A DNA stretch of 39,201 nt, taken from contig JBAYJA010000003.1 of the NCBI GenBank assembly GCA_041665345.1, forward strand, positions 1 through 39,201, in the 5' to 3' direction. Below, piece by piece: positions 12,717 to 31,097 of the stretch. Source of the DNA: Patescibacteria group bacterium (GTDB lineage: Bacteria > Patescibacteriota > Patescibacteriia > PEXW01). Position 1 is the stretch's first letter, and every line of letters begins with the position of its first letter. A program made the position numbers and the translations under genes. Under the pieces are notes generated by a model. It was given only the letters and a program-made list of their open reading frames with translations. It did not search any database and was not told the DNA's origin.

Positions 12717-12731
12717 TGTGTGCTACGAAGC

Positions 12732-13343
12732 CTACCGCTTCTCCAGCAGCAACATGGTCCACGGGATGGGCTGCTTGCCCCGGCGAACAACGAATGATTG
12801 CCCAACGAATCGTCGGAAACCCCACGGGGTCCAGTGGTTGATGTGCCCGGGGGTGTTCCCCCACCCTTTGAGGTACGTTCCCCGTGCCATGTTCATCACT
12901 CGCCACAGCGGCTCATGGGGTACGCTGATGATCGCCCACTTCTTGGTGACTCTAGCGAGTTCAGCCAAGGCTTTTTCTGGCTGCTCCAGGTGCTCCAGTA
13001 CTTCCAGCGCAAAAACCAAATCCACTGAGGCGTCAGGCCGGTTGAGAGCAAAAATGGATTCCACGCTGCAGGTTGCGCTGGGTACCCGCGCTTGGGTTGC
13101 TGTCACCAATTCTGGGGTGATGTCCGATGCTTGCAAGTCAACGTCAGGCAAGAAATGCCGAATGTGCTCGGTGGAAAAGCCTTCACCGCAGCCGACCTCC
13201 AACACACTCTTTAGATCGTTTGGTAATAGTCCCTGCAAAGTTTTGAAAAACCCGCGGAGGAAGTGCCGCATGATTGGGTTCTTAGATTCGTACTTCCCGC
13301 GGAAATCATCCTCCGGCCGATTGATGGGTGGTTGGTATGGCAT
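12732..13343 (-). CDS. class I SAM-dependent methyltransferase
   Basis: Motif I VLEVGCGEGFST, acidic residue after beta-2 (ASDIT), motif IV-like LVFALEVLEHL; 203 aa. Confidence 0.8.
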   Translation of the reverse strand: MPYQPPINRPEDDFRGKYESKNPIMRHFLRGFFKTLQGLLPNDLKSVLEVGCGEGFSTEHIRHFLPDVDLQASDITPELVTATQARVPSATCSVESIFALNRPDASVDLVFALEVLEHLEQPEKALAELARVTKKWAIISVPHEPLWRVMNMARGTYLKGWGNTPGHINHWTPWGFRRFVGQSFVVRRGKQPIPWTMLLLEKR

Positions 13344-13352
13344 ATCCGTACC

Positions 13353-14942: not shown

Positions 14943-15035
14943 GTAGGAAGTATACCGTATTGGAGGGGTGGAGGGTTTGGGTGTGGCAGCGAGTATGGTT
15001 AGAGGGTGGCGGTTTAGGATGGGTAGAGGTACGAG
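14943..15035 (-). promoter_or_regulatory. conserved C-rich upstream element, copy B (inverted relative to copy A)
   Basis: Minus-strand reading: ...CCTCTACCCATCC...CCATACTCGCTGCCACACCCAAACCCTCCACCCCTCCAATACGGTATACTTCCTAC|ATG. About 85% identical to copy A over about 70 nt; abuts ATG 14942 with no SD. Confidence 0.6.
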
Positions 15036-15204
15036 TGAAATACAATACTCCTCCCCTCCTTTCGAAGGAGCCGTCTGCGGCGGGTGCGAGCGAGCACAGC
15101 ACCTTAGGTAGGGGGAGGTCACCCTTACCGAGAAAACAAAATCACGCAGAATAAAAGTCTGGAAAAAACAAAAACATATTCTACTTCCTTCTTCTCAATC
15201 CCCT

Positions 15205-16380: not shown

Positions 16381-16422
16381 ATCCGTACCCTAGCGCGTGG
16401 CGGAGAAGCTGTAAAGTCGCGA

Positions 16423-16520
16423 AGGCCTTTTTCTGTCATCCTGAATCAGATGAAGGATCCCCAGACTATGGATAAACTTCGGAGATTCTTCGTTAGACTC
16501 AGAATGACAATGAGGAGGAG
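16423..16520. repeat. imperfect palindromic ~95-bp structured element, copy 2
   Basis: GGCCTTTTTCTGTCATCCTGAATCAGATGAAGGATCC...CTTCGTTAGACTCAGAATGACAATGAGGAGG. Left arm is about 85-90% identical to 1771-1804; outer stem TGTCATCCTGAATC/GACTCAGAATGACA (12/14 paired). Confidence 0.6.
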
Positions 16521-16647
16521 TTAGGTAGAAGAGGGCGGGATCCCGCCTCAGTGACGGGACGTAACTATCCCCTTCACATAATGGTGTAAAACGGACAACT
16601 ACGTTAAAATAAAGCCGTCATTCATTAGCTAAAGCACGCTTGCATCT

Positions 16648-19600
16648 ATGGAAATCAAGTCAAAATTTCACTTTTTTCGTCAGAACAACTTCACCTACCT
16701 GGACAGCGCCGCCACAACCCAAGTACCGGATGCGGTGACGCGTGTGGTGGAGCAGTCTTTGCAGTACAAAGGCAACCCGAATCGTAGTGCGCACGCCGTA
16801 GCGGAAAAAAATGAACAGGCGTTGCAAGCCGCCCGGGAGAATATTGCCGGCTTCATTGGCGCCACGGCAGAGGAACTCATCTTCACAAATAACACTACGG
16901 ACAGTATCAACCTTGCGGTGGATGGTATTGCCGACCATGTAAAGCCTGGTGACGAAATTGTCATCGCCGTGTCTGAACATCACTCCAACATGCTGCCCTA
17001 CACCAAGCTGGTAAAGCGTGGGGCGAAAATCCGCATCGTAGGCATCAAAGACGGCGTGGTCAATCCAAACGATGTGCAGAAAGCGCTTACGCCCAAAACC
17101 CGTATCGTGGCCGTGGGACACTGCTCCAATGTCCTCGGGAACATCAACGACGTGGTAGCTATTGGCAAACTCGTTAAAAACCACGACAAGAAAATCTTCT
17201 TCATTGTGGATGGCGCGCAAGCCGTGGCGCACATCCCAGTAGACGTCCAGGCAATGCAGGCGGACTTCTACGCGTTCTCGGGCCACAAAATGTACGGGCC
17301 AGATGGCGTAGGTGGATTGTACATTGCCCGAAAAATCCACCACCTGCTCACTCCGACACGTATGGGTGGCGGCACCGTGCAGAATGTGGCCATCACCTTT
17401 GATAAAACTGGTGATATCATCTCCCCTGACTACTTCCCGTCGCTCATCACGTTGGAAGGTGGCACGCCAAACCTGTCCAACATTCTCGGCCTTTCTCGCG
17501 CCGTCAACTTCATTCGTTCTATTGGCTTCCCAGATATTCAGGCACACGAACGCGGGCTGCTAAAACGTTTGCTGGATGGGTTGGCGACAATTCCTGGGGT
17601 GCAGGTCTTTGGTCCCACCGACCTCCAACAAAAAATTGGCGTCCTCTCTTTTGGTTTGCAAGACACGAACACCAAAGAACTCGGCGAACACCTTGGTCGC
17701 CAAAAGATCTGCATTCGCTACGGCGCACATTGTGCCTTCCCGCTAGCGGAAAAGCTGGGCCAAGAAACCCTGCGCATTAGTCTGGGCGTGTACAACACCG
17801 AAGAAGACATTGACCACGTGCTCAACGAAATGCGATTCTTCTTCGATAAGAAACAAGGGCGCATTACCAACCCCAACCTGGAGCCCCTGCGCAACAAGCT
17901 CTACTACCGCAGCACCCATGTGGTGAATTCCTATGCTGCCCTGGCCGAAAAGCTGCAGCAATCCCTCTACGGCCCACAGGATACGGAAATTATTGTCATG
18001 GGTGGCCACTTCTTGGGCATACCAGACATGCAGGAAAACCGCTTCTGGCCCAGCATTGCAACCATGGTACCCGAGCGCCTGCACGGCCTCATGGATGAGT
18101 TTGGCATGACGAGCTTTCCGCTTTTCACGTGGCGCTTGGCTTGTCGGACGGTTGCGGATTTGAAAGCGCACGGATACCAAGCAAAACTGGCAATTATTGC
18201 CAATGACACAACGGGAATGAATGAACTTCGTAACTCTGAAGCCAACACAACAAAGAAAACCGCTGAGCAATACCGAACTGAGTTACTAGATACTTTTCAA
18301 GAAGACGGTCATTTACCAAATCGCTATAGTGAAATTCTCAAAGAGCACGGATTGCATAAGCGAGATATTCTCAAGAATGGTGACAAATTCGTATTTCAAG
18401 AAACCTTACTCCGAGCCAACTTCAAAAAATTTGTTGATGGTAATAAAAATTTCTTTGATGGCATCATTGCCTACACAAAAAAGGCAGAGGAGAATATCGA
18501 CTTATCAATTAAACTCCTCGATAATCAGGAAATTGCTTCCTGCACGTTTAATACATTTCAATCAAAAACTGGTGGGAAGTTTTGCATTGTTGAATTGTGT
18601 CAATTTATTGCCGAACTCTTTGGTAAACCAGAACTGATTACATTCCCCTATGTATCACAGCGCGTACTGAAACCAAAGGTGACAGCAAATCACAAGATTC
18701 TTTTTGCAATCACGCCCGCGATGTGCGACAACGCTGTGACGCGATCCGCGGAACTCTACACCAAGCTTTTCCTCCAGGAGCAGAGTAAAGGATCATTTAA
18801 ATTCTTCAACTTGCCCCTAGGCCCAAATGCTGAGCGCAGCTTAGCTATGGGCGCAGAACTCAAGTATGTCTCAGACAAAGACAATCTTGAGGTACTTGAT
18901 ATTGAGCATGAGCCCGCATTTCCAGATCTCTGGCGCTTGGCTGAGTACAAGCTCATCTACAATGCTCCTGCCTATGTAACTGAAATGACCGCGCTTTTTG
19001 CGAAGCTGGGCCTCACCAAGAAATCCGCACTGCTGGATACCTGTGTGGGTCCAGGCTTCTTTGCCACTGAGCTGTTGCGGCAAGGTTACAATCTGCATAC
19101 CGCAGACAAGAGTGAAACCATGATGGCACCATTCCGCGCAACCCTGAAAGAGCTTGGTATCAACCACCAGCCCACAGTGAGCACGTGGCTTGATTTGCCA
19201 AAACACTTCGAGGCAAATTCCATGGATATGCTCTTCAACCGTGGGAACACCTTCATCTACGCGGCAGGCGGCTGGCATGAGCGAATCACCGTGGACCGAG
19301 AAAAATCTTTGGCGAAATATTTAGAGACGTTACGCGTCTACTACAGCCTTCTCAAGCCAGGTGGCTACCTCTACGTAGATAAATTCCGTGATGCAGAAAT
19401 CCCAGATAAAAAAGTTGTTGCTCGGCTGTACATTCAGGAGCCTGCGCAGCAAAAAGACGTAGTCTTCTACGTCGAACGCAAACCAGAAGATCACATTCGC
19501 TTTGCGCAAATGCTCTTGCGCGACACCCAAGGCAAAGAGACTGGATTACCAAACATGGCCTATGACTTGAGCGTAGAAGAAATGGAAATGTTGCTACAGA

Positions 19601-19677
19601 AAGCTGGGTTCAAGAACGTCCAACAACTCAAGCTCGCACAAGAAAAACACTTCGTCGTCTGGCTAGCCCAGAAATAG
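16648..19677 (+). CDS. 1009-aa multidomain protein: N-terminal SufS-like cysteine desulfurase (class V PLP fold), unknown central module, C-terminal GNMT-like class I SAM methyltransferase
   Basis: aa 1-~400: YLDSAATTQ, PLP-Lys motif FSGHKMYGPDGVGGLY, catalytic-Cys loop RYGAHCAFPL (cf. SufS RTGHHCAQP). aa ~730-1009: LLDTCVGPGFFA (motif I), GNTFIYAAGGW, LLKPGGYLYVDKFRD, resembling glycine/sarcosine N-methyltransferases (NSFxH, LLVIDHRNYD). aa ~400-730 unrecognised. 18230-18660 is an A/T-rich in-frame segment. Confidence 0.8.
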   Translation: MEIKSKFHFFRQNNFTYLDSAATTQVPDAVTRVVEQSLQYKGNPNRSAHAVAEKNEQALQAARENIAGFIGATAEELIFTNNTTDSINLAVDGIADHVKPGDEIVIAVSEHHSNMLPYTKLVKRGAKIRIVGIKDGVVNPNDVQKALTPKTRIVAVGHCSNVLGNINDVVAIGKLVKNHDKKIFFIVDGAQAVAHIPVDVQAMQADFYAFSGHKMYGPDGVGGLYIARKIHHLLTPTRMGGGTVQNVAITFDKTGDIISPDYFPSLITLEGGTPNLSNILGLSRAVNFIRSIGFPDIQAHERGLLKRLLDGLATIPGVQVFGPTDLQQKIGVLSFGLQDTNTKELGEHLGRQKICIRYGAHCAFPLAEKLGQETLRISLGVYNTEEDIDHVLNEMRFFFDKKQGRITNPNLEPLRNKLYYRSTHVVNSYAALAEKLQQSLYGPQDTEIIVMGGHFLGIPDMQENRFWPSIATMVPERLHGLMDEFGMTSFPLFTWRLACRTVADLKAHGYQAKLAIIANDTTGMNELRNSEANTTKKTAEQYRTELLDTFQEDGHLPNRYSEILKEHGLHKRDILKNGDKFVFQETLLRANFKKFVDGNKNFFDGIIAYTKKAEENIDLSIKLLDNQEIASCTFNTFQSKTGGKFCIVELCQFIAELFGKPELITFPYVSQRVLKPKVTANHKILFAITPAMCDNAVTRSAELYTKLFLQEQSKGSFKFFNLPLGPNAERSLAMGAELKYVSDKDNLEVLDIEHEPAFPDLWRLAEYKLIYNAPAYVTEMTALFAKLGLTKKSALLDTCVGPGFFATELLRQGYNLHTADKSETMMAPFRATLKELGINHQPTVSTWLDLPKHFEANSMDMLFNRGNTFIYAAGGWHERITVDREKSLAKYLETLRVYYSLLKPGGYLYVDKFRDAEIPDKKVVARLYIQEPAQQKDVVFYVERKPEDHIRFAQMLLRDTQGKETGLPNMAYDLSVEEMEMLLQKAGFKNVQQLKLAQEKHFVVWLAQK

Positions 19678-19685
19678 ACCCAACC

Positions 19686-20531
19686 ATGATGTCTGAAAAA
19701 AATCACGCGCCAAATCAGGACGCGGATAAGGAAAAAACCGAATACAAGACATTCCGCCTAGATCACGAGCCCACGTTTGCGGAGCTGTGGGAGCTGTGCG
19801 TGAATGAGCTGCTCTATAATGCGCCAAAGCATTACGATGAAATTGAGGCACTTTGGGAGCGACAAGGAATAACCAAAGAATCCAAAATTATTGATGTTGC
19901 TGCTGGGAGTGGCTTCCCCGCACTTGGTTTGCTGCAACGAGGGTGGAACATAGACTCCGCTGATGGCTTTACGGATGAGGTGGAACTCTTCAACAAACGT
20001 GCGGAAGAGGCGGGGTTGCCCGAACGCTGCGCCCAAGTGCTATGGGCGGATTTGCTCAAACAGTACCCAAAAGAAGCCTACGACTTCTTACTATGCAGAG
20101 GTAATTCATTCATATACGCGCCGGGGGGTTGGAATGCTGAAGCGCCGATAACCCCGCAGGCTGCACTGGAAGCCTACACCAACACAGCAAAAAACTTCTA
20201 CGATTTGCTCAAACCCGGTGGGCAGATGTACATCGATAAATTCAAAGATACCGAAATCTCGCATAAAGAAACCGTTGCGCGCTTGCAAATTGGTAACGCG
20301 ACCCCAGAAGACCTCATTTTCTGGACCCAACGCTTTTCGGAGCAGCACATTCGCCGTGCGTCCATGATTCGCCGCAAACAGGATGGTACCGAAACTGGCA
20401 CACCGAACATTTCGTATGACCTTACCTTTCCAGAAATGGAAAAGGCATTAACGACGGCTGGTTTTTCCAAGATTGAACAGCAGCAGCTTGAAACAGAAAA
20501 AGTTTTCAACACCTGGATTGCAACAAAGTAA
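19686..20531 (+). CDS. GNMT-like class I SAM-dependent methyltransferase, standalone paralog of the C-terminal domain of the upstream 1009-aa protein
   Basis: 281 aa, co-linear with aa ~730-1009 of the upstream protein: DHEPTFAELWEL/EHEPAFPDLWRL, IDVAAGSGFPA/LDTCVGPGFFA, CRGNSFIYAPGGW/NRGNTFIYAAGGW, LLKPGGQMYIDKFKDTEI/LLKPGGYLYVDKFRDAEI, C-terminal ETEKVFNTWIATK/AQEKHFVVWLAQK. Confidence 0.75.
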   Translation: MMSEKNHAPNQDADKEKTEYKTFRLDHEPTFAELWELCVNELLYNAPKHYDEIEALWERQGITKESKIIDVAAGSGFPALGLLQRGWNIDSADGFTDEVELFNKRAEEAGLPERCAQVLWADLLKQYPKEAYDFLLCRGNSFIYAPGGWNAEAPITPQAALEAYTNTAKNFYDLLKPGGQMYIDKFKDTEISHKETVARLQIGNATPEDLIFWTQRFSEQHIRRASMIRRKQDGTETGTPNISYDLTFPEMEKALTTAGFSKIEQQQLETEKVFNTWIATK

Positions 20532-20565
20532 GTTCGCGGATTGAACGCAGGACGCACTTTTTCAC

Positions 20566-20594
20566 TTGACCTTCACATATTTTTTTAGTATAGT
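20566..20594 (+). promoter_or_regulatory. sigma70-like promoter TTGACC-17 nt-TATAGT upstream of yebC
   Basis: Hexamers at 20566-20571 and 20589-20594 with 17-nt spacer; ATG 20627. Confidence 0.45.
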
Positions 20595-20626
20595 CATCAT
20601 ACTTCCAGGGGGATTTTTTCTGTTGT

Positions 20627-21343
20627 ATGTCTGGACATTCCAAGTGGTCTACTATTAAACGGCAAAAGGGTGTTGCGGATGCCAAGCGCAGCTCAGTCTT
20701 TACCAAACTTGGCAAAGCAATTGTGGTGGCTGCCCGGCTGGGCGGAGCTGACCCGGCTATGAACTTCCGTCTTCGGCTGGCTGTGGAAAAAGCACGCGAG
20801 GCCAGCATGCCCAAAGACAACATTGAGCGAGCCATTGCCAAGGGTAGTGGTACGGCCGAGGGTCAGCAGTTGGAAGAGGTAACCTACGAAGGTTTTGGAC
20901 CTGGTGGCACCGCCATCATCGTGGAAGCGGTGACCGATAACCGCAACCGCACTGTGCATGAGGTAAAAACCTTATTTAGCAAGCACGGCGGTACCATGGG
21001 GAATGAGAATAGTGTACGGTGGCAATTTGACCGACGGGGGGTGCTTCGTATTGCCGCAGAACACCTACCCAAGGATCACGACACCTTTGCACTGCAGATG
21101 ATTGAAGAAGGCGCCGAAGATGTGAAAGATGATCCAGAAGGAATCACTTTGCTGACGCAACCCGAGGCATTGGAAAAAGTGAAAGTCGCGCTTGGGACCA
21201 CCCCTGTGGCATCTGCGGACATTGAATTCGTGCCCAAAACTCCCCTCCCTCTTTCTCCGGCGGACGCGGAGAAGCTGCACACGCTCACCGGCATTCTTGA
21301 AGACCACGCTGATGTCACCAACGTCTGGACGAACGGTGCGTAG
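20627..21343 (+). CDS. yebC: YebC/PmpR-family transcriptional regulatory protein
   Basis: MSGHSKWSTIKRQKG...FTKLGKAI...AR.GGADP..N..LR.A...A...MPKDNIERAI...G, full-length 238 aa. Confidence 0.9.
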   Translation: MSGHSKWSTIKRQKGVADAKRSSVFTKLGKAIVVAARLGGADPAMNFRLRLAVEKAREASMPKDNIERAIAKGSGTAEGQQLEEVTYEGFGPGGTAIIVEAVTDNRNRTVHEVKTLFSKHGGTMGNENSVRWQFDRRGVLRIAAEHLPKDHDTFALQMIEEGAEDVKDDPEGITLLTQPEALEKVKVALGTTPVASADIEFVPKTPLPLSPADAEKLHTLTGILEDHADVTNVWTNGA

Positions 21344-21374
21344 CCCCCATCGTAGCTCGAAGAGCGAAGGTGGG

Positions 21375-21842
21375 CGCGTTATCCTTGGCATTGACCCGGG
21401 GTTTGGGCGCGTGGGCTGGGGCGTCATCCAGCAAACTGCCAACAAACTAACGGCTATTGACTACGGGGTGATTGAAACCCCAGCGGGCACCCCTTTTGCC
21501 AAGCGCTTGCAGCTCATCTACAGCAAATTAACTGAGCTGATCCATTCCTACAAACCGCAAGTCGGTGGGGTTGAACGCCTCTTCTTCTCGCAGAACACCA
21601 CAACCGCCATGCAGGTGAGTGAGGCGCGCGGGGTGATCCTGCTCACGCTGGCGCAAGCCAAGATTCCCGTGCACGAGTGTACGCCGCAAGCCGTGAAGCA
21701 GACGCTCTCCAGCTACGGCCGCGCGGACAAAGCCCAGGTCCAGCGCATGGTCGCTACACTCCTTCATCTCCCTTCCATTCCCAAGCCTGACGATATCGCG
21801 GATGCCTTGGCCATTGCCATCACCGCCGCAACTTCCACATGA
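21375..21842 (+). CDS. ruvC: crossover junction endodeoxyribonuclease RuvC (5' end/start codon uncertain)
   Basis: RVILGIDPGFGRVGWGV... catalytic N-terminus and ...DIADALAIAIT C-terminus. There is no in-frame ATG/GTG/TTG between the yebC stop (21343) and the conserved ILGIDPG block, so the exact start is unresolved (nonstandard initiator or sequence error). The ORF-track start at 21192 overlaps yebC and is not credible. Confidence 0.75.
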   Translation, partial: RVILGIDPGFGRVGWGVIQQTANKLTAIDYGVIETPAGTPFAKRLQLIYSKLTELIHSYKPQVGGVERLFFSQNTTTAMQVSEARGVILLTLAQAKIPVHECTPQAVKQTLSSYGRADKAQVQRMVATLLHLPSIPKPDDIADALAIAITAATST

Positions 21843-23098
21843 AACGCATCGCCCTCATCAACGTGCACTGCGATCCACTCGAAAGCCTTGGATCCGCAGA
21901 AGCCGGCGGTCAAAATGTCTACGTCCAGCACCTTGCTAAGGCACTTGGCAAACGCGGTTACTATGTGGATGTCTTTTCCCGGCTCAACTCTCGCTCCAAA
22001 AAGGAACGCGTCCGGGTTTCCAAGCACGTGCAATTCATCCGCCTCGTCGCTGGCCACCGGCAGTTCATCCCCAAGAATAAACTGGGGCCACTGCTGCCTG
22101 AATTCATTAGCAACTTCCTGGCCTGGCAGAAACGTGAGGGTGTGCGGTACGACCTGCTGCACTCACACTACTGGGAGGCGGGCTGGGTAACCATGCAGCT
22201 GAAGTACATACTCAAAGTCCCACAGGTCCACACCTTCCACAGCTTGGGCATCATGCGCTACAACGCGCTGAAAGGATTTCGGGAGCAGAGCCTGGATACC
22301 ACGGAAATGAAGAAGCGTATTGCCATTGAAAAAGAAATTACGGAAAAAGCTGAGTGCATTCTGAGCACTAGCCCGTACGAACGTGAGTACCTGGAGAAGC
22401 ACTATGCTGCAAAATCTGAGAACATTCGCGTTGTCCCTTGTGGCGTGGATTTGCAACGCTTCCGACCCATTGACCGAAATGAGGCACGAAAAAAAATTAA
22501 TGCGCCAAACGGCGACAACCTTATTCTCTACACTGGTCGCATTGAGTGGCGCAAGGGCATTGGCACCCTGGCCATTGGCGTCGCTAAACTCTTCAAGCAC
22601 CACCCAGAGCTGCGAGGAAAAACCTGGCTGTACATTGTCGGCGGCAACCTGGGCCGCCGGGCAGAGCCCGAAGTCCGGGAGGAAATCAAACGACTGAAAG
22701 ATGTGTGCCGAGAGTATGGGATACGTGATCGCACCGTATTTACCGGCGCCGTGCAGCAAGAAAAACTCCACTTCTACTACTCAGCGGCAAACGTCTGCGT
22801 CATCCCCTCCTACTACGAGCCTTTTGGCATGGTGCCGTTGGAAGCCATGGCCTGCAAAGTGCCGGTGATCGCCTCTGATACCGGTGGCCTGCCGTACACG
22901 GTTCGGAATATGAAGAGCGGGATTTTAGTCCCCGTTCGCAACCCGGGTGCCATCGCCCATCGCTTAGCCGACGTCCTGACCAAGCGCGAGCTGGCAGAGA
23001 AACTGGTGCGAGGAGGCCGGGAACTTGCAAAGACCACCTTTAGCTGGCGGCTGATTGCGAAGGGCGTCGCCGAGGTGTACGAACGGCTGGTGAAGTAA
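21839..23098 (+). CDS. GT4 glycosyltransferase, sucrose-phosphate-synthase-like (SPS/MshA-type GGQNVYV family)
   Basis: N-terminal MKRIALINVHCDPLESLGSAEAGGQNVYVQHLAKALGKRGYYVDVFSR (SPS/MshA-type signature); C-terminal GT-B E-x7-E region YEPFGMVPLEAMA; 419 aa, like minimal cyanobacterial SPS. Start overlaps the ruvC stop (ATGA). Confidence 0.7.
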   Translation: MKRIALINVHCDPLESLGSAEAGGQNVYVQHLAKALGKRGYYVDVFSRLNSRSKKERVRVSKHVQFIRLVAGHRQFIPKNKLGPLLPEFISNFLAWQKREGVRYDLLHSHYWEAGWVTMQLKYILKVPQVHTFHSLGIMRYNALKGFREQSLDTTEMKKRIAIEKEITEKAECILSTSPYEREYLEKHYAAKSENIRVVPCGVDLQRFRPIDRNEARKKINAPNGDNLILYTGRIEWRKGIGTLAIGVAKLFKHHPELRGKTWLYIVGGNLGRRAEPEVREEIKRLKDVCREYGIRDRTVFTGAVQQEKLHFYYSAANVCVIPSYYEPFGMVPLEAMACKVPVIASDTGGLPYTVRNMKSGILVPVRNPGAIAHRLADVLTKRELAEKLVRGGRELAKTTFSWRLIAKGVAEVYERLVK

Positions 23099-23175
23099 GA
23101 GTTTCAACTATACGAATCGACTCTACTGCGATTTTTTGTAGCCTAAAATGGGACTTATAGTGTAAACTGGAAACC

Positions 23176-23943
23176 ATGGATGACCATCCAACTCCTTCAA
23201 CGATTAATTTTTCCCTTACTCTTCCGCTCTATAACGAGGGGAGTATTCTGCAAAAAAATTTAACTTCTATCCACACAATTTTATCTGGGAAAGGGTCATT
23301 TTCCTTCGAAGTTATCGTTATTGATGATGCTAGTAAAGACGACACAGCTCGCAGCGCAAAACAGTTTTGTGACCATCTACCAAATTGGCATTTCCTGCAA
23401 AATGAAAAAAATCTTGGCCGGGGTGGTACGGTAATGCGGGGTTTTCGTGAATCACGGGGAACGATCGTTGGCTTTATTGACGTCGACTGCGAAGCTTCGC
23501 CAATGTACCTGTTGGATTTCATTCCGGATTTACTCGCACATAAAGTTGATGGGATTACCGGCATGCGCATATACCCATTTTCATTTTCAACATTCCTTCG
23601 CGCTGGGACAAGCTACCTCTATCGCCAACTTGTGCAACTATTTTTACGCGTAGCGTACAAGGACAGGCAATCTGGGTATAAAACATTTCGTCGGGAAGCA
23701 ATTTTACCACTCCTAGCGTACACAAAAAATCAGCATTGGTTTTGGGACACGGAGATTATGGTCATTGCACACCTGGCTGGTTTACGTATTGAGGAAAGGC
23801 CCATTTTGTTCTACCGTGACACTGCAAAAAAATCTACGGTGAAACTCTTTCGAGACAGTATGCTGATGGTGAGGGAACTCTTTCGCTTTCGAGCACGTAT
23901 GCCGCAACTTGCGGCTGACTTAGCCGAACGCACGAACCGCTAA
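23176..23943 (+). CDS. GT2 glycosyltransferase (polyprenyl-phosphate sugar transferase, DPM1/GtrB-like)
   Basis: LTLPLYNEGSIL, VIVIDDASKDDT (DxD-type nucleotide-sugar-binding acidic motif), second acidic motif IDVDCE; 255 aa. Visibly more A/T-rich than the flanking genes. Confidence 0.8.
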   Translation: MDDHPTPSTINFSLTLPLYNEGSILQKNLTSIHTILSGKGSFSFEVIVIDDASKDDTARSAKQFCDHLPNWHFLQNEKNLGRGGTVMRGFRESRGTIVGFIDVDCEASPMYLLDFIPDLLAHKVDGITGMRIYPFSFSTFLRAGTSYLYRQLVQLFLRVAYKDRQSGYKTFRREAILPLLAYTKNQHWFWDTEIMVIAHLAGLRIEERPILFYRDTAKKSTVKLFRDSMLMVRELFRFRARMPQLAADLAERTNR

Positions 23944-23945
23944 GC

Positions 23946-24686
23946 ATGGAGTCGCAGCTGTACCACACTTTTGCGCAAAATGAGATGACTCATTGGTGGT
24001 TTGTGGGTCGGCGGGAAATTTTTTCCGCGGTCTTCAAGAAATTACTGCAAAAAAAAGAATTACAAATCTTAGACGTAGGGTGCGGAACAGGGGGCAACCT
24101 ACCACTCCTCGCTGGCTATGGAAACGTCGTTGGGATTGATAATAGCCCCACGGCCGTGGCGTACGCAAAAACCCAAGGATACACATCCGTAATTTGTGCC
24201 GATGCATCCAAGCTCCCATTTGCAGACAACTCCTTTGACTGTGTCGTGGCAATTGACATTATCGAGCACATGCAAGACGATTCCGCATTCGTCAAAGAGC
24301 TCCACCGGGTACTCACACCCGAGGGATTTGCGGTACTTTCAACGGCCGCTTTTTCTTTTTTGTGGAGCTCACACGACACTCGAAACCAACATTGGCGACG
24401 GTACACCAAAAAGCAGCTTACTGCGTGCTTTCCAAAGAATCTCTGGCTTTCGAAGATCGTGCGATACTACAACTTCATTTTTTTTCCAGTGATTGCAGTC
24501 ATTCGCCTGTGCCAAAAGTTGATACCGGAAAGGACCCCAAAAGAGGGGGCGGCGTGGGAACTTGCAACCCCACCCACCCTATTCAATGCTGTACTTCACA
24601 GTGTCCTTGCCGCCGAAAGATTCTTTTTGCGATTTCCAATACCCTGGGGGGTTTCTCTACTAGCGGTATACCAAAAAAGGAAGTGA
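23946..24686 (+). CDS. class I SAM-dependent methyltransferase
   Basis: Motif I ILDVGCGTGGNL, GIDNSP, FDCVVAIDIIEHMQD; 246 aa; part of the A/T-rich cassette. Confidence 0.8.
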   Translation: MESQLYHTFAQNEMTHWWFVGRREIFSAVFKKLLQKKELQILDVGCGTGGNLPLLAGYGNVVGIDNSPTAVAYAKTQGYTSVICADASKLPFADNSFDCVVAIDIIEHMQDDSAFVKELHRVLTPEGFAVLSTAAFSFLWSSHDTRNQHWRRYTKKQLTACFPKNLWLSKIVRYYNFIFFPVIAVIRLCQKLIPERTPKEGAAWELATPPTLFNAVLHSVLAAERFFLRFPIPWGVSLLAVYQKRK

Positions 24687-24691
24687 GGCAG

Positions 24692-25585
24692 ATGCATATC
24701 GCCATGTTTGGGGGGACAGGATACGTTGGGAGTGCTTTGCGCGCACATTTGGCTAGCCAACGTATTCGAGTGAGTGTTTTTTCACCCCACTCCCCTAGCC
24801 CACTCTACCCTCTGGAAACCCACGTGGTTGCCGACCCATGGTCTGCCAGAATTGAACCCGGGGTATTTACGCATATCCTTGACTTCTACGGCGTATCTGG
24901 AGATGCGGCCTGTGCTCGGAATCCGCAGGAGGCAGCGTATAGAAACGTAGACTCGGTTCGTGCGCTCATGCATGCAGCGGCGGGTACAGGCATTGATAGA
25001 TTCGTCTATGTCTCTACTGCTTCAGTGTTTGATGATGGTGTCCAGAAAACGGGGAATGAATTTTTTGAAAACGATGTGCCTCGTCCTGCAACAGTGTACG
25101 GCGATACAAAGCGAATTGCGGAAAATCTACTCCTATCACAAGAAAAGGTACCCTGCACAATTATTCGCCATCCAACAATCTATGGCCTATCGCCGTGCAT
25201 GCGATGGGACACATTGATGCAATTTTGCGTTCAGCAAGCAAAAAAAGAGGGGGTGGTGCGCATGTTTGGGGATGGGAGTGCGTTTCGCCCCCTCGCCGCG
25301 TTGTCACACGTTGTTGCTGGATACGCACATGTGCTACATTCTCCCCCACCTTCACAGTCTTGCTTCCACATTGTTTCTGAGAATGAGCCAATTCGTAACT
25401 ACCTAGAGAGAATCCAGCAGGTTGCCAAGGAATGTGGGCAGCGTATTAGCGTGGAAACGGTAGAGCAGTCCTACGTCCCAAGCTATCGGGTGCACAGTTC
25501 TTTCCCCTATACCAACCGACCAGAGTATTCTTTCGAGCTCCTTCAAGCTATTTGGAAAGCGGCGGTCGGTCGCAATCACCTGTAG
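24692..25585 (+). CDS. NAD-dependent epimerase/dehydratase (SDR family)
   Basis: Start at ATG 24692 with SD AAGGAAGTGAGG. N-terminal GGTGYVGS Rossmann motif, catalytic YGDTK (YxxxK). The ORF-track 5' extension to 24362 overlaps the methyltransferase and is rejected. Confidence 0.8.
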   Translation: MHIAMFGGTGYVGSALRAHLASQRIRVSVFSPHSPSPLYPLETHVVADPWSARIEPGVFTHILDFYGVSGDAACARNPQEAAYRNVDSVRALMHAAAGTGIDRFVYVSTASVFDDGVQKTGNEFFENDVPRPATVYGDTKRIAENLLLSQEKVPCTIIRHPTIYGLSPCMRWDTLMQFCVQQAKKEGVVRMFGDGSAFRPLAALSHVVAGYAHVLHSPPPSQSCFHIVSENEPIRNYLERIQQVAKECGQRISVETVEQSYVPSYRVHSSFPYTNRPEYSFELLQAIWKAAVGRNHL

Positions 25586-25646
25586 CTGGCGCTTGATTGC
25601 CAAAGGCGTGGCCGAAGTGTACGAACGAATGGTGGAGAAAAAATAA
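25576..25646 (+). pseudogene. relic 3'-end fragment of an SPS-like GT4 gene (duplicate of 23034-23098)
   Basis: CACCTGTAGCTGGCGCTTGATTGCCAAAGGCGTGGCCGAAGTGTACGAACGAATGGTGGAG...TAA is about 80% identical to the last about 65 nt of the GT4 at 21839..23098 (..SWRLIAKGVAEVYERLVK*). It would encode SWRLIAKGVAEVYERMVEKK*. The epimerase stop TAG lies inside it. Confidence 0.6.
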
Positions 25647-25657: not shown

Positions 25658-26731
25658 CTAGGTCTCCGTACGATCGGTTCGGATTTTTTGTATTCGCTCC
25701 GCCCGCTGCAGCACTTCCGCAGCGTAGCTAATACTCTCAGGACCAAGCCGATCACCTTTTTCAACGTAGATTGCTTTCAGGGCTCCATCTTCTCCCATGA
25801 CCCTACGGAAGCTACTCTTCCCAGGTTTTTCCGGGGCTGACGCATCAACCGCGGAAACAAGTTCTGACTTTGCGCCACCAACCACCACAGCTTGCAACTT
25901 CCCTGACCGCATGAGCATGTCGGTGTCATTCCCGCTGTCACCCGCCACCAAACCTTTTTCCACATTCGTAAGCTTCGCTACGTAGTCAACGGCTCCGGCT
26001 TTGGTTATGGGCAGAACGTCCAGGCAGTACTTTTTTCGTGGTTCACCCTCGTGCTCACGGTTGTAGCCAATTTCCTCGCAGGCCACCAGCTCCTGACCGG
26101 GAAAGGCTGTGGCCGCCTCTTGCATCACTCCCTCCACTCCTGCCGGTGCGTCAGCGAAAAAGTAAAAGCTGAGCTTGAATTCCTGCACCGCCTGGTTCAC
26201 CGCTTCGGGCTCCGGGTTAGCGAGGTACCGCCTTTCTGCCTCGGGTTTCTGGTATACGACCTCAGCAGCTTGGGCAGGTTGACTGACGAGAAAGGCACTG
26301 GCGGCAGCGGCAATTTCTGGCCGGTTGAAGTGCTTTTCTTCCAGCAGCATCTTCCGATACGCTTCATCTCTTCGGTACGTACCGTCGGGCTGCAGGACGT
26401 GGATTTCCGTTCCCACAGAACCAATGAGCACTGGGAATTTTGGCAACTCCCCAGCTGCCTGCCGCTTCTGAATACCAGCTAGGTCATTCCCGGTCACGGC
26501 AACCAGTGGATACTCCAGCTCCTCCGCCTTCGCAAAAAGCACTTCCGATTCCTGCTGCCGGTCTTTGCGGTGGAAGGTGTTATCAATGTCCGTAAACCCA
26601 ACAGTAAAGCCCTCACCCCGTTCAGCTTGCTTGGCTTTCATTGCTAGATACGGTGAATCTCGGTAAACCGCCAAAGCCTGCTCGAGTTCTGCATCTGGGT
26701 TGTACTGCTCTCTACCTTCAAATGACATCAC
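25658..26731 (-). CDS. HAD-IIB phosphatase, sucrose-phosphate-phosphatase (SPP)-like
   Basis: HAD motif I FTDIDNTF (DxDxT), motif II VAVTGN, motifs III/IV K...GDSGNDTDML characteristic of the SPP/S6PP family; 357 aa. Confidence 0.7.
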   Translation of the reverse strand: MMSFEGREQYNPDAELEQALAVYRDSPYLAMKAKQAERGEGFTVGFTDIDNTFHRKDRQQESEVLFAKAEELEYPLVAVTGNDLAGIQKRQAAGELPKFPVLIGSVGTEIHVLQPDGTYRRDEAYRKMLLEEKHFNRPEIAAAASAFLVSQPAQAAEVVYQKPEAERRYLANPEPEAVNQAVQEFKLSFYFFADAPAGVEGVMQEAATAFPGQELVACEEIGYNREHEGEPRKKYCLDVLPITKAGAVDYVAKLTNVEKGLVAGDSGNDTDMLMRSGKLQAVVVGGAKSELVSAVDASAPEKPGKSSFRRVMGEDGALKAIYVEKGDRLGPESISYAAEVLQRAERIQKIRTDRTET

Positions 26732-26785
26732 GATATGGTGTAAGTAAGGTATACTACCAGTACTCTACCACTTACCTTTGCCCGT

Positions 26786-27835
26786 ATGAAGAAGCTCCGG
26801 ATTGCGCAGCTGGTTCCGTTTGAAGAAACTGTCCCTCCCACCAAGTACGGCGGCACAGAGCTCGTCGCAGCAAACCTCTGCGATGGGTTGGTGAAACAAG
26901 GACATGACGTCACCCTCTTCTCCGTGGGCGGTTCCAAGACCAAGGCCAAGTTGGTGAAGATTTTTCCCGGCTCACTTCGCGCCATGACTGGCACCGACGT
27001 GAAGCAACGAGAATCTTTGAAGTACATGGGCGTGGGCAAGGTGCTCACCGCGGTGGCGGCTGGAAAATTCGACATTGTCCACAACCACATTGGCTGGCGC
27101 GTGCTGCCCTTCACCGGCATGATCCCCCACCCTGTGGTCACCACGCTCCACGGACCCTTGGACATTGGCTACCAGCAAATGGTGTACAAGCCCTACAGCC
27201 ACACCCCGTTCGTTTCCATATCCAACAACCAGCGCAAACCCCTGAAGCTCAACTACGCGGCCACCGTGTACAACGGTATTCATGTGGAAAAGTTTGCCTA
27301 CCTGGAGAAGAAGGATGACTACCTGGCGTTTTTGGGCCGCATGAGCCCAGAGAAAGGTCCGGTGCAGGCCATCCAGGTGGCAAGGAAAACTAAACGTCGT
27401 TTGATAATGGCCGCGAAAGTGGATGCGGTGGATGTGAAGTTCTTCACCGAGAAGGTGAAACCGCTCATTGACGGCAAGCAAATCAAATTCTTGGGTGAAG
27501 TGGATCACGTTGGAAAATCCAAACTCCTGTCCCGCGCTGCAGGCTTGCTGGCGCTCATCCAGTGGGAAGAGCCCTTTGGCCTCTTCATGGCAGAGGCTAA
27601 TGCCTGCGGCACGCCGGTCATTGCCATGGCACGGGGAGCCGCGCCTGAGGTGATTGCCCACAAGCAGACTGGCTTCCTGGTGCACTCCAATGACGAAGCG
27701 GCGCGCATGGTGAGCAAGCTGGGAACAATTAGACCCGCGGCCTGCCGAAAACGAGCGGAGCAGTACTTTTCCGTGGAAGCAATGGTCGCTGGGTACCTGG
27801 CGGTGTACCAAAAGCTCATCCGGCAGTGGCGGTAA
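26786..27835 (+). CDS. GT4 glycosyltransferase (small, ~350 aa), paralog a
   Basis: N-terminal KKLRIAQLVPFEETVPPTKYGGTELVAANL..GH.VTLF; C-terminal GT-B motif WEEPFGLFMAEANACGTPVIA (E-x7-E). Paralogous to 28827..29885 and 29882..30922. Confidence 0.8.
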   Translation: MKKLRIAQLVPFEETVPPTKYGGTELVAANLCDGLVKQGHDVTLFSVGGSKTKAKLVKIFPGSLRAMTGTDVKQRESLKYMGVGKVLTAVAAGKFDIVHNHIGWRVLPFTGMIPHPVVTTLHGPLDIGYQQMVYKPYSHTPFVSISNNQRKPLKLNYAATVYNGIHVEKFAYLEKKDDYLAFLGRMSPEKGPVQAIQVARKTKRRLIMAAKVDAVDVKFFTEKVKPLIDGKQIKFLGEVDHVGKSKLLSRAAGLLALIQWEEPFGLFMAEANACGTPVIAMARGAAPEVIAHKQTGFLVHSNDEAARMVSKLGTIRPAACRKRAEQYFSVEAMVAGYLAVYQKLIRQWR

Positions 27836-28830
27836 ATCCACATATGACTCGGACCGCCCTCCTGAAGCACGTTCGCGGCCTCCTGCAGAAACGCGGGTTA
27901 ACCCCAGATGCCGATGTGAAAGAAATGCTCAACCACCAGCGACGGTTTTTTCGTACGCGCTGCGTGGATGCAAAGGGCCGGGCCTACACCTTCAAGGTGT
28001 ACCTCATGCGCGTGCCAACCACGCGGCACGACTTCCAGCACGAAATTGCTTTCTACCACTTCACGGCCAAAGCGCGGCTGAACCAATTTCCTCGCTGGGT
28101 GGAAGGAAATCGAACCGGAGCACACCCCTGGATTCTCTACCACTACATACCCGGCGAGCTCTTCACGGCGTACCTCCGCAAACATCGGAACCACGTTCCA
28201 CCAAAGCTCATCGCCAACCTCAGCCACATGCTGGCACACTACGGCCAGCTGCCCATTCCTCTGGCTACACGCCGGCTCCTCCACCTCCAAGCACACCGCG
28301 CCAGTGACTTTACTGCCCGCTTTCGAACCTACGCTCGGGGGAAAAACGGCCAGACACTTCGGACGTACCTCAGTGATGCTGAGCTTGAAGTTGCTGCACG
28401 CATTGTGGCGTTCCACCAGCTCGAACGGCATACCCGGCACCAATTAGGCATTAGCCACGGCGACTTAAGTACAAATAACCTCCTCGTGGATCAGGGACGC
28501 TTTGCGGTACTAGACTGGGAGCATATTCAAATTGCCTCCCCGGCGTACGACGTGGCGGAACTCTGGGTCAAAGAATTCAGCCGCGCACCCTGGCGGAACC
28601 GGCTGGTAAAAAAAGTTGCTGACCTGCAGCCAGACCACGCTGCCTTTAGCGCGCTCTTCGCCATTGAGGTACTACTTTTCTGCCTCCGGGATATTCTCCT
28701 CCACCACCGCATCCTCTCGGAGCTGCACCACACCAAGAATAAAGTGATTGTCCGTAAACTCTTACGCTACTACGTTCGCACATTCCGCGCCGGGCTGCAT
28801 GGCTTTTCCTCGCTTATGAAAAATGCATGA
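27826..28830 (+). CDS. APH/choline-kinase-family phosphotransferase (putative sugar or small-molecule kinase)
   Basis: Brenner catalytic motif ISHGDLSTNNLLVD and downstream LDWEH (DxE metal-binding). 334 aa; overlaps the upstream GT4 stop by 10 nt and the downstream GT4 start by 4 nt. Confidence 0.65.
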   Translation: MAVNPHMTRTALLKHVRGLLQKRGLTPDADVKEMLNHQRRFFRTRCVDAKGRAYTFKVYLMRVPTTRHDFQHEIAFYHFTAKARLNQFPRWVEGNRTGAHPWILYHYIPGELFTAYLRKHRNHVPPKLIANLSHMLAHYGQLPIPLATRRLLHLQAHRASDFTARFRTYARGKNGQTLRTYLSDAELEVAARIVAFHQLERHTRHQLGISHGDLSTNNLLVDQGRFAVLDWEHIQIASPAYDVAELWVKEFSRAPWRNRLVKKVADLQPDHAAFSALFAIEVLLFCLRDILLHHRILSELHHTKNKVIVRKLLRYYVRTFRAGLHGFSSLMKNA

Positions 28831-29885
28831 ACAAATCTCGCAGACTCCGCATTGCCCAAGTTGCTCCCCTGGCTGAACGCGTTCCACCCCGCAAGTACGG
28901 CGGTACCGAATTGGTCATTGCAAATTTGGTGCAAGGCTTGGTCAAGCGCGGACACAGCGTGACACTCTTCGCGCGGTCCGATTCCGACACGCCTGCAAAG
29001 CTGGTTCCCGCCTACCACCCTGACCCGCGCGCGACCAACCGCAGCCGTATTCGGGGCTACAGCGTACCAGCCTTTTGGCAAATGCTGCAGTACGGCCATG
29101 TCTTTGAGCACGCCAACGATTTTGACATCATCCACATGCACGTGGGATCGAGTAGCTTCCCTTACACCCGGCTGGTACAAACGCCGTGCGTGCTCACGCT
29201 GCATGGCCGTTTGAACACGAGTGAAGCGAAAATTGTGCACCAAGCCTACCCAGAAATTCCCCTGGTCTCCATTTCTAACAACCAGCGTGAACCGCTCCCC
29301 AAACTGAACTTCATTCGCACCGTGTACAATGGCATTGACGTTGCCAAATTCCGCTACAACGACCGCCCCAAAAAGTACCTAGCATTCCTGGGTCGGATGA
29401 GCCCAGAGAAGGGCCCAGTAGAAGCAATGCAGGCGGCAAAGAAAGCGGGCTTACCTTTGGTCATGGCCGCAAAAGTGGACACCGTGGATGAAGCGTACTT
29501 CATGAAGAAAGTCCGACCGTTCATTGATGGGAAGCGGGTGATCTTCCTTGGTGAAGTAAACCATGCAAAAAAGGTGGATCTCCTCCGTAATGCCTTGGGT
29601 TTGCTGGCGCTCATCCAGTGGGAAGAACCTTTTGGCTTGTTCATGACCGAAGCCATGGCCTGCGGCACACCAGTGATTGCCACCCGCCGGGGCGCCGTGC
29701 CAGAAATTGTGGTGGATGGGAAAACGGGGTTCATTGTTGCCTCCGTTGCCGGGGCAGCTAAGGCAATTGCCAAGCTGCAGACCATTGATCGTGCGGCCTG
29801 CCGGGCACGAGTGGAAAAAGGCTTCTCCCTTGATACAATGGTAGATGGGTACCTCGCGGCCTATGCCAAACTCCTGAAAAAATGA
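28827..29885 (+). CDS. GT4 glycosyltransferase (small), paralog b
   Basis: RLRIAQVAPLAERVPPRKYGGTELVIANL...GHSVTLF; WEEPFGLFMTEAMACGTPVIA; closely related to 26786..27835 (same blocks throughout). Confidence 0.8.
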   Translation: MNKSRRLRIAQVAPLAERVPPRKYGGTELVIANLVQGLVKRGHSVTLFARSDSDTPAKLVPAYHPDPRATNRSRIRGYSVPAFWQMLQYGHVFEHANDFDIIHMHVGSSSFPYTRLVQTPCVLTLHGRLNTSEAKIVHQAYPEIPLVSISNNQREPLPKLNFIRTVYNGIDVAKFRYNDRPKKYLAFLGRMSPEKGPVEAMQAAKKAGLPLVMAAKVDTVDEAYFMKKVRPFIDGKRVIFLGEVNHAKKVDLLRNALGLLALIQWEEPFGLFMTEAMACGTPVIATRRGAVPEIVVDGKTGFIVASVAGAAKAIAKLQTIDRAACRARVEKGFSLDTMVDGYLAAYAKLLKK

Positions 29886-30922
29886 AGAAACCAAAGATAG
29901 CTATCCTCGCCTCCAACCTCTTCCCCATTCCGCCGCAGCGTACGGCCGCGGCTGAGCTTATTGTCTCCCAAATTACCGAAGGGCTTGTGAAACGTGGCTT
30001 TCCGGTGACGCTCTACGCTGCCGGTGATACCAAAACCAAAGCGCGCTTGGTTGCCGCCACCCCCCGCGCCTCCATCCGTGAGCCCAAGATTGGCATGGAA
30101 AACCACAAGGCCTACGAGCTCATCCAAACCAGCAATGCCTACCGAGATGCCACGCGCTGGGGCGCCAACGTCCTGCTCTCCCACGTGCCCATGATGAGCG
30201 CGCACTTCTCCCCGTTCGCCCCTTTTCCATCCACTGCGCTCCTGCACAGTCCGCCAACTTTCACGGACCAAGCGGTCATGCGAACCTACAGCAAGACGCA
30301 GAGCTACATTGCCATTTCCAAAGCGCAGCGCAACTTGGCGCCTGGCGCACGTTTCATTCAGACCATTCAGCACGGCGTGGATCTACACAAACTCCCCTTC
30401 CACCCCAAGCCCGGCACGTACCTGGCCTTCCTGGGTCGCATCCGCAACTACAAAGGCGTACATGAGGCTATTACCGTGGCGCATCGGCTCAACCTACCTT
30501 TACGCATTGCCGGCCCCATTGGCGACCCCGTGTACTTTGCCCAACAAGTGAAGCCCTACCTCAACAGCCGCATCCGGTACATTGGTGAAATTACCCACCG
30601 AGAGAAAGGCGCCTTCTTGGGCAATGCCCTGGCCACACTCTTCCCCATTTCGTGGGATGAACCCTTTGGCTTGGTGCTCATTGAATCATTGGCCGTGGGC
30701 ACACCCGTGGTGGCATTCAAGCGTGGCTCGGTCCCAGAAATTCTCAAGGATGGGAAAACTGGTTTCATTGTCAAAAATACTGCAGCCATGGCGCAAGCAG
30801 TCCGGCACATCGACGCAATTGACCGAGCGGTCTGCCGCAAAGACATGGAAAAACGTTTCAGCCTTGACCGCATGGTGGATGACTATGCTGCTTTACTTAC
30901 ACGTCTAGCCGCCGGTAAGTAG
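29882..30922 (+). CDS. GT4 glycosyltransferase (small), paralog c (more divergent)
   Basis: KIAILASNLFPIPPQRTAAAELIVSQITEGLVKRGFPVTLYA; WDEPFGLVLIESLAVGTPVVA; start overlaps the upstream stop (ATGA). Confidence 0.75.
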   Translation: MKKPKIAILASNLFPIPPQRTAAAELIVSQITEGLVKRGFPVTLYAAGDTKTKARLVAATPRASIREPKIGMENHKAYELIQTSNAYRDATRWGANVLLSHVPMMSAHFSPFAPFPSTALLHSPPTFTDQAVMRTYSKTQSYIAISKAQRNLAPGARFIQTIQHGVDLHKLPFHPKPGTYLAFLGRIRNYKGVHEAITVAHRLNLPLRIAGPIGDPVYFAQQVKPYLNSRIRYIGEITHREKGAFLGNALATLFPISWDEPFGLVLIESLAVGTPVVAFKRGSVPEILKDGKTGFIVKNTAAMAQAVRHIDAIDRAVCRKDMEKRFSLDRMVDDYAALLTRLAAGK

Positions 30923-31034: not shown

Positions 31035-31097
31035 CCATCCAACCATACCTTTCAACGATACTCGCTGCCACAACCAAACCCTCACCCCTTTGCAACT
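31035..31097 (+). promoter_or_regulatory. conserved C-rich upstream element, copy C (core only)
   Basis: CCATCCAACCATACCTTTCAACGATACTCGCTGCCACAACCAAACCCTCACCCCTTTGCAACT|ATG. Shares the ATACTCGCTGCCACA(C/A)CCAAACC(C/T)TC(T/C/A)ACC core with copies A and B but lacks the CCAATACGGTATACT proximal module; no SD. Confidence 0.5.

Follow-up and report, generated by a model that had tools for sequence, protein, structure and literature searches.

Gain of a three-gene glycan module at the 3' end of a glycosyltransferase gene in one lineage of a Parcubacteria-type bacterium

How can three metabolic genes come to lie between two copies of the end of a neighbouring gene, when no recognisable mobile-element gene accompanies them? 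The question is raised by a contig of a Patescibacteria group bacterium (JBAYJA010000003.1, positions 1 to 39,201; this whole 39,201-nt stretch is called the window below). Here, genes for a family-2 glycosyltransferase (GT2), a methyltransferase (MT) and a short-chain dehydrogenase/reductase (SDR) follow a family-4 glycosyltransferase gene (GT4), and are themselves followed by a second copy of the last nucleotides of GT4. The locus belongs to one lineage of a Parcubacteria-type bacterium of about 53% GC, which gained the 2.4-kb GT2-MT-SDR module at the junction of GT4 with a convergent hydrolase gene (HAD); the same site is empty in all sampled relatives. The genes concerned, named by a Pfam scan of the open reading frames (ORFs) of at least 150 aa in the window (n = 28), are the following.

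21839-23098, plus strand: GT4 glycosyltransferase, 419 aa, resembling SPS (sucrose-phosphate synthase) and MshA, the intact target gene (Pfam Glycos_transf_1, Glyco_transf_4)
23176-23943, plus strand: cassette gene 1, family-2 glycosyltransferase GT2, 255 aa (PF00535, 88 bits)
23946-24686, plus strand: cassette gene 2, class I S-adenosylmethionine (SAM) methyltransferase MT, 246 aa (PF08241)
24692-25585, plus strand: cassette gene 3, extended SDR, RmlD/epimerase-like, 297 aa (PF01370, and PF04321, RmlD_sub_bind)
25658-26731, minus strand: HAD-IIB hydrolase, like sucrose-6-phosphate phosphatase (S6PP), convergent with GT4, right flank of the cassette (PF05116)

The duplicated gene end and the empty sites

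An initial annotation of the window had claimed that the end of GT4 is repeated after the cassette, and the alignment bears this out. Positions 23035-23098 and 25577-25640 match without gaps over 64 nt, of which 53 are identical (83%); the local alignment score is 73, and shuffled queries (n = 200, whole window, both strands) gave a mean of 24.2 with a standard deviation of 2.0 and a maximum of 30. It is the sole repeat of its kind in the window, the remaining ones being paralogous coding sequence or short intergenic repeats. The peptides are also as had been claimed: translated in the GT4 frame, the second copy gives TCSWRLIAKGVAEVYERMVEKK* and the true end of GT4 gives TFSWRLIAKGVAEVYERLVK*. 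The parts of the repeat are listed here, with the terms native and incoming anticipating the interpretation given in the next section.

23035-23098, plus strand: copy A, the functional last 20 codons and stop of GT4; attL-like, its left 40 nt native-looking and its right 13 nt incoming-looking
23075-23085, plus strand: GTGTACGAACG in copy A, the longest block identical in both copies and the putative crossover region
23099-23143, no strand assigned: spacer 3' of the GT4 stop, sharing GATTTTTTGTA with 25682-25692
25577-25646, plus strand: copy B, which is non-coding, a relic of a GT4 3' end; attR-like, its left 40 nt incoming-looking and its right part native-looking
25617-25627, plus strand: GTGTACGAACG in copy B, putative crossover region

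The repeat had been placed immediately after the SDR stop codon, and this detail needs correction: the last two codons and the TAG stop of SDR lie inside copy B, into which the gene reads for 9 nt. The cassette therefore abuts copy B without an intergenic spacer and takes the SDR stop from it. The alignment of the SDR protein with its nearest homologs holds as far as a conserved Trp, after which SDR continues for 9 residues against their 4, a tail 4-5 residues longer. Stops lie upstream of copy B in the GT4 frame, which also runs across the SDR gene in a different reading frame; copy B is therefore non-coding and part of no plausible gene. It has a Cys in place of the family-invariant Phe401 (repeat position 6) and retains the ancestral E-K ending present in all more distant relatives. 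The K-stop ending of copy A is common to the sister lineage described below.

Leftward extension of the repeat past 23035/25577 is not significant (1813 of 3000 shuffles score as well). Rightward, past the stop, a weak and gapped similarity runs for about 45 nt, with the 11-mer GATTTTTTGTA present in both stretches; 27 of 2000 shuffles reach its score, and an extension of the repeat on this side is possible. The spacer may thus be a diverged copy of the intergenic region and the HAD 3' end; its similarity to the junction of the sister lineage is not significant.

Relatives were collected by genome and metagenome scans with GT4, which yielded 20 related loci with 80-95% amino acid identity in GT4; the 12 distinct loci with at least 300 nt present downstream of GT4 were taken as informative. 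Close homologs of GT4 are annotated as Patescibacteria or Parcubacteria. The related loci share the gene order PGI-YebC-RuvC-GT4-(variable)-GT4b-APH-GT4c-GT4d-GalT, where PGI is phosphoglucose-isomerase-like, APH is an aminoglycoside-phosphotransferase-family kinase and GalT is galactose-1-phosphate uridylyltransferase-like. The GT2-MT-SDR trio is absent from the GT4 locus in 12 of the 12 informative relatives. Relatives in which GT4 converges on HAD with no cassette between, as the initial annotation had expected, were found in three cases. In the two members of the sister lineage (L003 and L033, 96.4% identical to each other in GT4 nucleotides, and 94-95% identical to the window GT4 in amino acids and 81-82.5% in nucleotides) the GT4 stop is followed by 20 nt and the HAD stop, and in L009 the two stops abut. 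Apart from two point changes, the junction of the sister lineage follows the ancestral gene end collinearly, and it is not hybrid. Other relatives carry at the GT4 3' spot an EamA transporter gene, a TrmB regulator gene or genes for hypothetical proteins, or lack HAD; because the insert content differs among relatives, the GT4-to-GT4b interval is a variable region of the clade. The relatives with other inserts at the same junction (L004, L005, L008, L010) show no duplicated GT4 end.

The genome and metagenome scans with GT4 returned no relative closer than 94-95% in GT4 amino acids, and none with the cassette. Two further contigs, one of 176 kb from ENA and one from JGI, encode the exact GT4 protein and have the same structure as the window; they differ from it by 1 mismatch in 21 kb and 3 mismatches in 16 kb, respectively. 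Since these assemblies agree, the filled site is not an assembly artefact, an explanation that was rejected on the three independent assemblies carrying it. Divergence along GT4 showed no change-point other than a stretch of variable protein sequence that all relatives have.

Two of the records used, L003 and L005 (CAZBMC010000067.1 and CAZAMC010000004.1), are titled 'uncultured Gammaproteobacteria bacterium'; with 83-94% GT4 identity and full synteny with Patescibacteria metagenome-assembled genomes, these bins are probably mislabelled. Downstream of the variable interval, GT4b and GT4c (26786-27835 and 28827-29885) are paralogs of 53% identity with the APH-family kinase gene between them, and GT4d (29882-30922) shares repeat blocks with both; the GT4b-APH-GT4c-GT4d arrangement is kept in all relatives.

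Base composition agrees with the view, put forward from the start, that the cassette is more A/T-rich than its flanks. The 2.4 kb between the copies have 48.3% GC, the flanking genes 55-57% and the window 52.7%, so that the A/T-richness is real but modest. GC at third codon positions (GC3) is 0.43, 0.53 and 0.49 for GT2, MT and SDR, the three lowest values among the 28 window genes (neighbours, 0.57-0.73), and the tetranucleotide deviation of the cassette ranks 2 of 148 segments. Three further patches of the window are about as deviant, around 8.7-11.4 kb, 18.2-20.7 kb and 31.7-34.4 kb. A sister-like donor as the cause of the low GC3 was rejected, since GC3 of the sister lineage equals that of the window. 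These data support a compositionally foreign cassette inserted in one lineage. Horizontal acquisition, as originally proposed, thus stands with regard to lineage specificity, composition and empty sites; an exotic import does not, as the trio is a conserved Parcubacteria module (see below).

Origin of the two copies

The two copies behave as two alleles of the gene end rather than as a gene and its decayed copy, since their differences are mainly synonymous. Over the 20 sense codons, 7 of the 10 differences are synonymous (pS 0.49, pN 0.065, the proportions of differing synonymous and non-synonymous sites; binomial p = 0.0025). Polarisation against the sister lineage gave equal distances of 11/64 for A to B, A to sister and B to sister, and a spatial segregation of the unique changes. 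The five changes unique to A are all synonymous and fall at repeat positions 16-40. Those unique to B are at position 6 (Phe401 to Cys) and at positions 52-62, that is, at 1 of 40 sites on the left and 4 of 13 on the right (p = 0.01). A runs test on this segregation gave p = 0.04, or 0.016 without position 6, and the 11-mer GTGTACGAACG separates the A-unique from the B-unique cluster.

From these ten sites we infer a mirrored mosaic around GTGTACGAACG, each copy being a hybrid. The left part of A joined to the right part of B would give a native allele, ...GCGAAGGGCGTCGCCGAG GTGTACGAACG AATGGTGGAGAAAAAATAA, that ends in ...AEVYERMVEKK* with the E-K ending of every more distant relative; it differs from the sister lineage at 15 of 64 positions (77% identity, where GT4 taken as a whole has 81-82.5%). 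The left part of B joined to the right part of A would give an incoming allele, as contiguous sequence ...CGCTTGATTGCCAAAGGCGTGGCCGAAGTGTACGAACGGCTGGTGAAGTAA, that ends in ...AEVYERLVK*, differs from the sister lineage at 7 of 64 positions and shares its derived K-stop. If so, only the last 13-19 nt or so of copy B are original DNA. The description of the second copy as the displaced original 3' end was then too simple, and holds insofar as copy B is a non-coding relic.

It appears plausible, if short of probable, that the module was gained by one reciprocal Campbell-type crossover with an incoming homolog of the GT4 end, because a single reciprocal crossover yields a left product that is resident on its left and incoming on its right, and a right product that is incoming on its left and resident on its right. 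The module would have arrived joined to a homolog of some 64-110 nt of the GT4 3' end from a related lineage, on DNA that was presumably circular or paired ends-in. A single reciprocal exchange with the resident GT4 3' end, within or beside GTGTACGAACG, would leave copy A with native left and incoming right parts, keeping GT4 intact with the shorter ...ERLVK* end, and copy B with incoming left and native right parts, a non-coding relic with ...ERMVEKK*; SDR would then read 9 nt into copy B and stop there. The enzyme might be either RecA, acting on short homology of about 84% identity, or a site-specific recombinase encoded elsewhere.

Several points weigh against such a crossover. The resident and incoming alleles are only about 84% identical, with identity blocks of at most 11-15 nt. 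So short a homology is poor for RecA, given its minimal homology requirements, and would suit a site-specific recombinase; no integrase, resolvase, excisionase or transposase gene was found in the cassette or the 39-kb window by Pfam among the 28 ORFs of at least 150 aa, 8 ORFs having no Pfam match and the rest of the genome being unseen. The mosaic depends on 10 polarised sites in 64 nt, with an outgroup near saturation at synonymous sites (third-position identity 0.53-0.57), and its p values of 0.01-0.04 are partly post hoc. The lineage of the incoming GT4-end allele cannot be named, because the spacer after copy A is unlike the sister-lineage junction. No closer cassette that could mark a donor (GT2 above 64% amino acid identity) and no circular form of the cassette were found.

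Other routes to the same structure have to be weighed. The cassette might have been captured where GT4 and HAD meet, either at a staggered break or through template switching in replication, with duplication of about 64-110 nt in situ followed by selection on copy A and decay of copy B. Direct repeats do flank the insert, the possible right extension would cover the whole convergent junction, no mobility genes are present, and 5 of 5 A-unique changes are synonymous with 4 of 5 B-unique changes non-synonymous (Fisher p = 0.048). Duplication with a neutral copy B, however, leads one to expect about 62% non-synonymous differences, and the observed share of 3/10 is too low (p = 0.04). The rate per neutral site is 4.5 times higher in A (5 changes at 14.2 synonymous sites) than in the supposedly neutral B (5/64; p = 0.02), and the decay of B is very uneven, as seen from its left and right parts. 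Copy B moreover has the ancestral E-K and copy A the derived K-stop of the sister lineage, which would need parallel double substitutions or a reversal, and divergence in the putative relic behind copy A far exceeds that in the left part of B, though the two should be of one age. We regard this origin as unlikely, but as one to be kept in mind. Very improbable, by comparison, is a cassette that was ancestral to the clade together with both repeats and was lost in the relatives by recombination between them. Direct repeats would permit precise excision, and the GT4-GT4b content does vary across the clade; however, 12 of 12 informative relatives are without the trio, including outgroups at 80-85% GT4 identity, so that many independent precise losses would be needed. 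The GC3 of the cassette is unameliorated, and the sister junction, collinear with the ancestral gene end, bears no hybrid trace.

Uptake of a linear fragment is a further candidate, by homology-facilitated illegitimate recombination (HFIR). A fragment from a relative, with a 3' part of GT4 followed by the cassette, would be anchored by homology in GT4, and its far end, within the last SDR codons, joined illegitimately 64 nt before the resident stop, making A wholly donor and B wholly native. This would account for the mostly synonymous divergence, as for two alleles, for the abrupt fall of similarity at the stop codon and for the loss of SDR's own stop at the right junction; the absence of a significant left extension also fits an abrupt joint, at 25574-25577. 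HFIR is a documented mechanism (PMC3240628), and both natural competence and the retention of genes for homologous recombination are reported for Patescibacteria (PMC12455944). A mosaic within the repeat, in which the right of A and the left of B are sister-like and the left of A and the right of B are not, is not expected from HFIR. The joint must also fall upstream of the anchor end to give a duplication, when the usual outcome of HFIR is a deletion; on the whole we hold this course to be decidedly unlikely. The repeats could instead be attL and attR of a remnant or satellite of a site-specific integrative element, with GTGTACGAACG as core and the integrase lost or acting in trans, as in the cis-mobilizable elements (CIMEs), which have no integrase, are flanked by att sites and lie at gene 3' ends. 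A short identical core with diverged arms in hybrid arrangement, a reconstituted 3' end of the target gene and empty sites in relatives speak for it. It is made improbable by the lack of an integrase, excisionase or transposase gene in the cassette and the 39 kb, with three enzymes filling the coding capacity of the cassette, by homology on both sides of the core, which points to a captured homologous gene end and not to a dedicated attP, and by the absence of flanking repeats at other trio loci and at the relatives' other inserts at this junction. A long shot is the related idea that the trio is a small excisable circle without integrase, using the conserved 3' end of GT4 as attachment site and GTGTACGAACG as point of exchange, and moved between related Patescibacteria by a host recombinase encoded elsewhere; such a unit would let surface-glycan genes be shuffled as cassettes in a phylum from which very few mobile elements are known.

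The module, its homologs and its neighbours

The identities given to the three cassette genes in the initial annotation hold at Pfam level. Because the NCBIfam scores of the cassette genes, GT4 and HAD are all under the curated cut-offs, only family-level names are justified. For GT2 these are 28.7 against 529 for ArnC and 52.9 against 500 for PgfS, and its matches in PDB are weak (dolichol monophosphate mannose synthase, DPMS, 5MLZ, E = 4.5e-8; ArnC, 9HWJ, E = 2e-6). Its gene context favours a candidate assignment to the polyprenyl-phosphate glycosyltransferases of DPMS/ArnC/GtrB type. SDR reaches 54.7 bits with the RmlD equivalog model TIGR01214, below the required 224, and is a member at Pfam level only.

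Homologs of GT2 are 50-64% identical, the nearest (63-64%) lying on a Parcubacteria-type contig of 42.5% GC. For SDR an exhaustive HMMER scan of 1.84 billion representatives found none above 36% identity (nearest 31-36%). In three loci (L017, L018, L019; contigs of 42-49% GC) a GT2 homolog is followed in the same order by a methyltransferase (24-46% amino acid identity) and an SDR (31-35%), the identity of MT to the gene after GT2 being 43-46% in L017 and L018. In these loci and in L034 and L035 the trio-type module sits in glycan clusters with genes for PMT_2/GT-C-like multi-pass proteins, DUF2079 proteins, sugar aminotransferases and pilins. No flanking repeats were found at the trio loci L017-L019. 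By its gene content and order the trio is a conserved module of lower-GC Parcubacteria glycan clusters. Homologs of the window proteins hyp552 and hyp554 are also encoded in L017 and L018, and window positions 4275-15122 encode a T4SS-pilin-like protein, DUF2079, hyp554, hyp418, hyp552, a methyltransferase and hyp589. Gene context and the weak DPMS and ArnC matches suggest that the trio may make or modify a polyprenyl-phosphate-linked sugar for the GT-C-like membrane proteins encoded 8-19 kb upstream.

The best PDB match of the target gene product GT4 is 6KIH (Tll1590; 311 bits), which we take to be the sucrose-phosphate synthase of Thermosynechococcus, and which scores above MshA-type entries. 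With the sucrose-phosphate synthase model TIGR02472 it reaches 157 bits (cut-off 576), and the MshA model scores higher (293 bits). An S6PP-like HAD gene adjoins GT4, and in relatives a GH100 invertase-like gene comes after HAD. A GH100 invertase-like or GDE_C glycoside hydrolase gene lies between HAD and GT4b in L004 (13882-15225), L008 (10810-12099) and L009 (12418-13848), and no glycoside hydrolase gene is found in the HAD-GT4b gap of the window (26732-26785); HAD is also missing in L010, L011, L020 and L021. As the presence of hydrolase and HAD varies, the putative set of sugar-phosphate synthase, phosphatase and hydrolase has a patchy distribution in the clade. Upstream of GT4, the RuvC ORF is listed with a TTG start (21192-21842), which puts some 150 nt of it inside YebC. 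The gene callers prefer a start near 21336 (168 aa) or further downstream, and in the long ORF the Pfam domain is matched from residue 64 onwards.

Elsewhere in the window, a second lineage-specific block (16381-20626) lies between PGI and YebC, which are adjacent in L003, L020, L021, L023 and L026. It encodes a 1009-aa protein, a class-V aminotransferase (NifS-like) with a methyltransferase-like C-terminal fusion, and a 281-aa ORF without Pfam match; GC dips to 0.36-0.39 at 18150-18600, and no junction duplication flanks the block. Its left edge holds one copy of a 39-nt intergenic repeat (1765-1803 and 16421-16459, 79% identical, ..TGTCATCCTGA.TCA.A.GAAGGATC), the other copy of which follows the ADH gene. 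A 49-nt direct repeat (6036-6084 and 31035-31083, 84% identical), which contains TATACT, has one copy close behind the listed start of the DUF2079 ORF and the other just upstream of GalT, and could be a promoter or leader motif common to both. Downstream of the T4SS-pilin-like ORF, an 85-nt repeat (5229-5313 and 5696-5780, 73% identical, spacing 467 nt) suggests tandem small pilin-like paralogs below the ORF-size filter used.

Comparison with known systems

The locus was compared with the classes of element that carry genes into such sites. An integron cassette was rejected: the junctions fold no better than shuffles (z = -0.5 to +1.1), there is neither an attC-like hairpin nor an integrase, and three genes are present, not one. 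A transposon or insertion sequence was likewise rejected, as there is no transposase and no inverted repeat pairing the cassette ends, and the duplication is at least 64 nt long and 83% identical, against target duplications of 2-15 bp. Rfam gave no match at the junctions at an E value of 1 or less, a terminator scan found nothing there, and the window contains no tRNA gene as a target. In common with an integrative element the locus has direct repeats with an identical core, hybrid arms (p = 0.016-0.04) and empty sites in L003, L033 and L009; a recombinase gene in or beside it was not found. Because the integron and transposon tests failed and the recombinase is missing, the locus is classified as working like Campbell integration, without membership of a named element family.

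The closest likeness is to Campbell-type integrative elements and CIMEs, among which integrase-less members have been described at the 3' end of the fda gene in Streptococcus thermophilus. The resemblance lies in the flanking direct repeats, the hybrid arms round a short identical block, the reading frame restored by the incoming arm and the empty sites in relatives. It ends at the gene content, since here there are no integrase, excisionase or conjugation genes, only three metabolic genes and no evidence of repeated mobility; a further difference is that homology between the incoming site and the gene end extends to either side of the core. HFIR in natural transformation (PMC3240628) is similar in placing foreign genes beside a stretch homologous to the recipient, with no need of mobile-element genes and in a phylum reported to be competent (PMC12455944). 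The present locus, with its duplication and mirrored mosaic, differs from the products expected of HFIR, in which one arm is donor throughout and the recipient has usually suffered a deletion.

In terms of function, the module recalls the systems in which a GT2 and sugar-modifying enzymes serve a GT-C protein (ArnC/ArnT, DPMS/PMT): in L018, L034 and L035 the GT2 homolog is found beside methyltransferases, sugar-modifying enzymes and PMT_2-like proteins. The window differs in that its GT-C-like genes are 8-19 kb off and not adjoining, and in NCBIfam scores far under the cut-offs.

The event is of a known kind and otherwise ordinary: a small genomic island adjoining a protein-coding gene at its 3' end, within a glycan region of variable content. 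Should the hybrid repeats be real, the gain here went by reciprocal exchange at a very short identical block, without a recognisable mobile-element gene, which bears on the origin of cell-surface diversity in the phylum. As in O-antigen and capsule-type glycan loci, conserved flanks (YebC-RuvC-GT4 and GT4b-APH-GT4c-GT4d-GalT) enclose a variable middle, here HAD with or without an EamA-family transporter, GH100-type hydrolase or TrmB-family regulator gene, or nothing. A swap in such a locus does not normally duplicate a gene end, whereas here the joining footprint is preserved and, with matched empty sites, provides a base-resolved example of the gain of surface-glycan genes in an uncultivated Patescibacterium of reduced genome.

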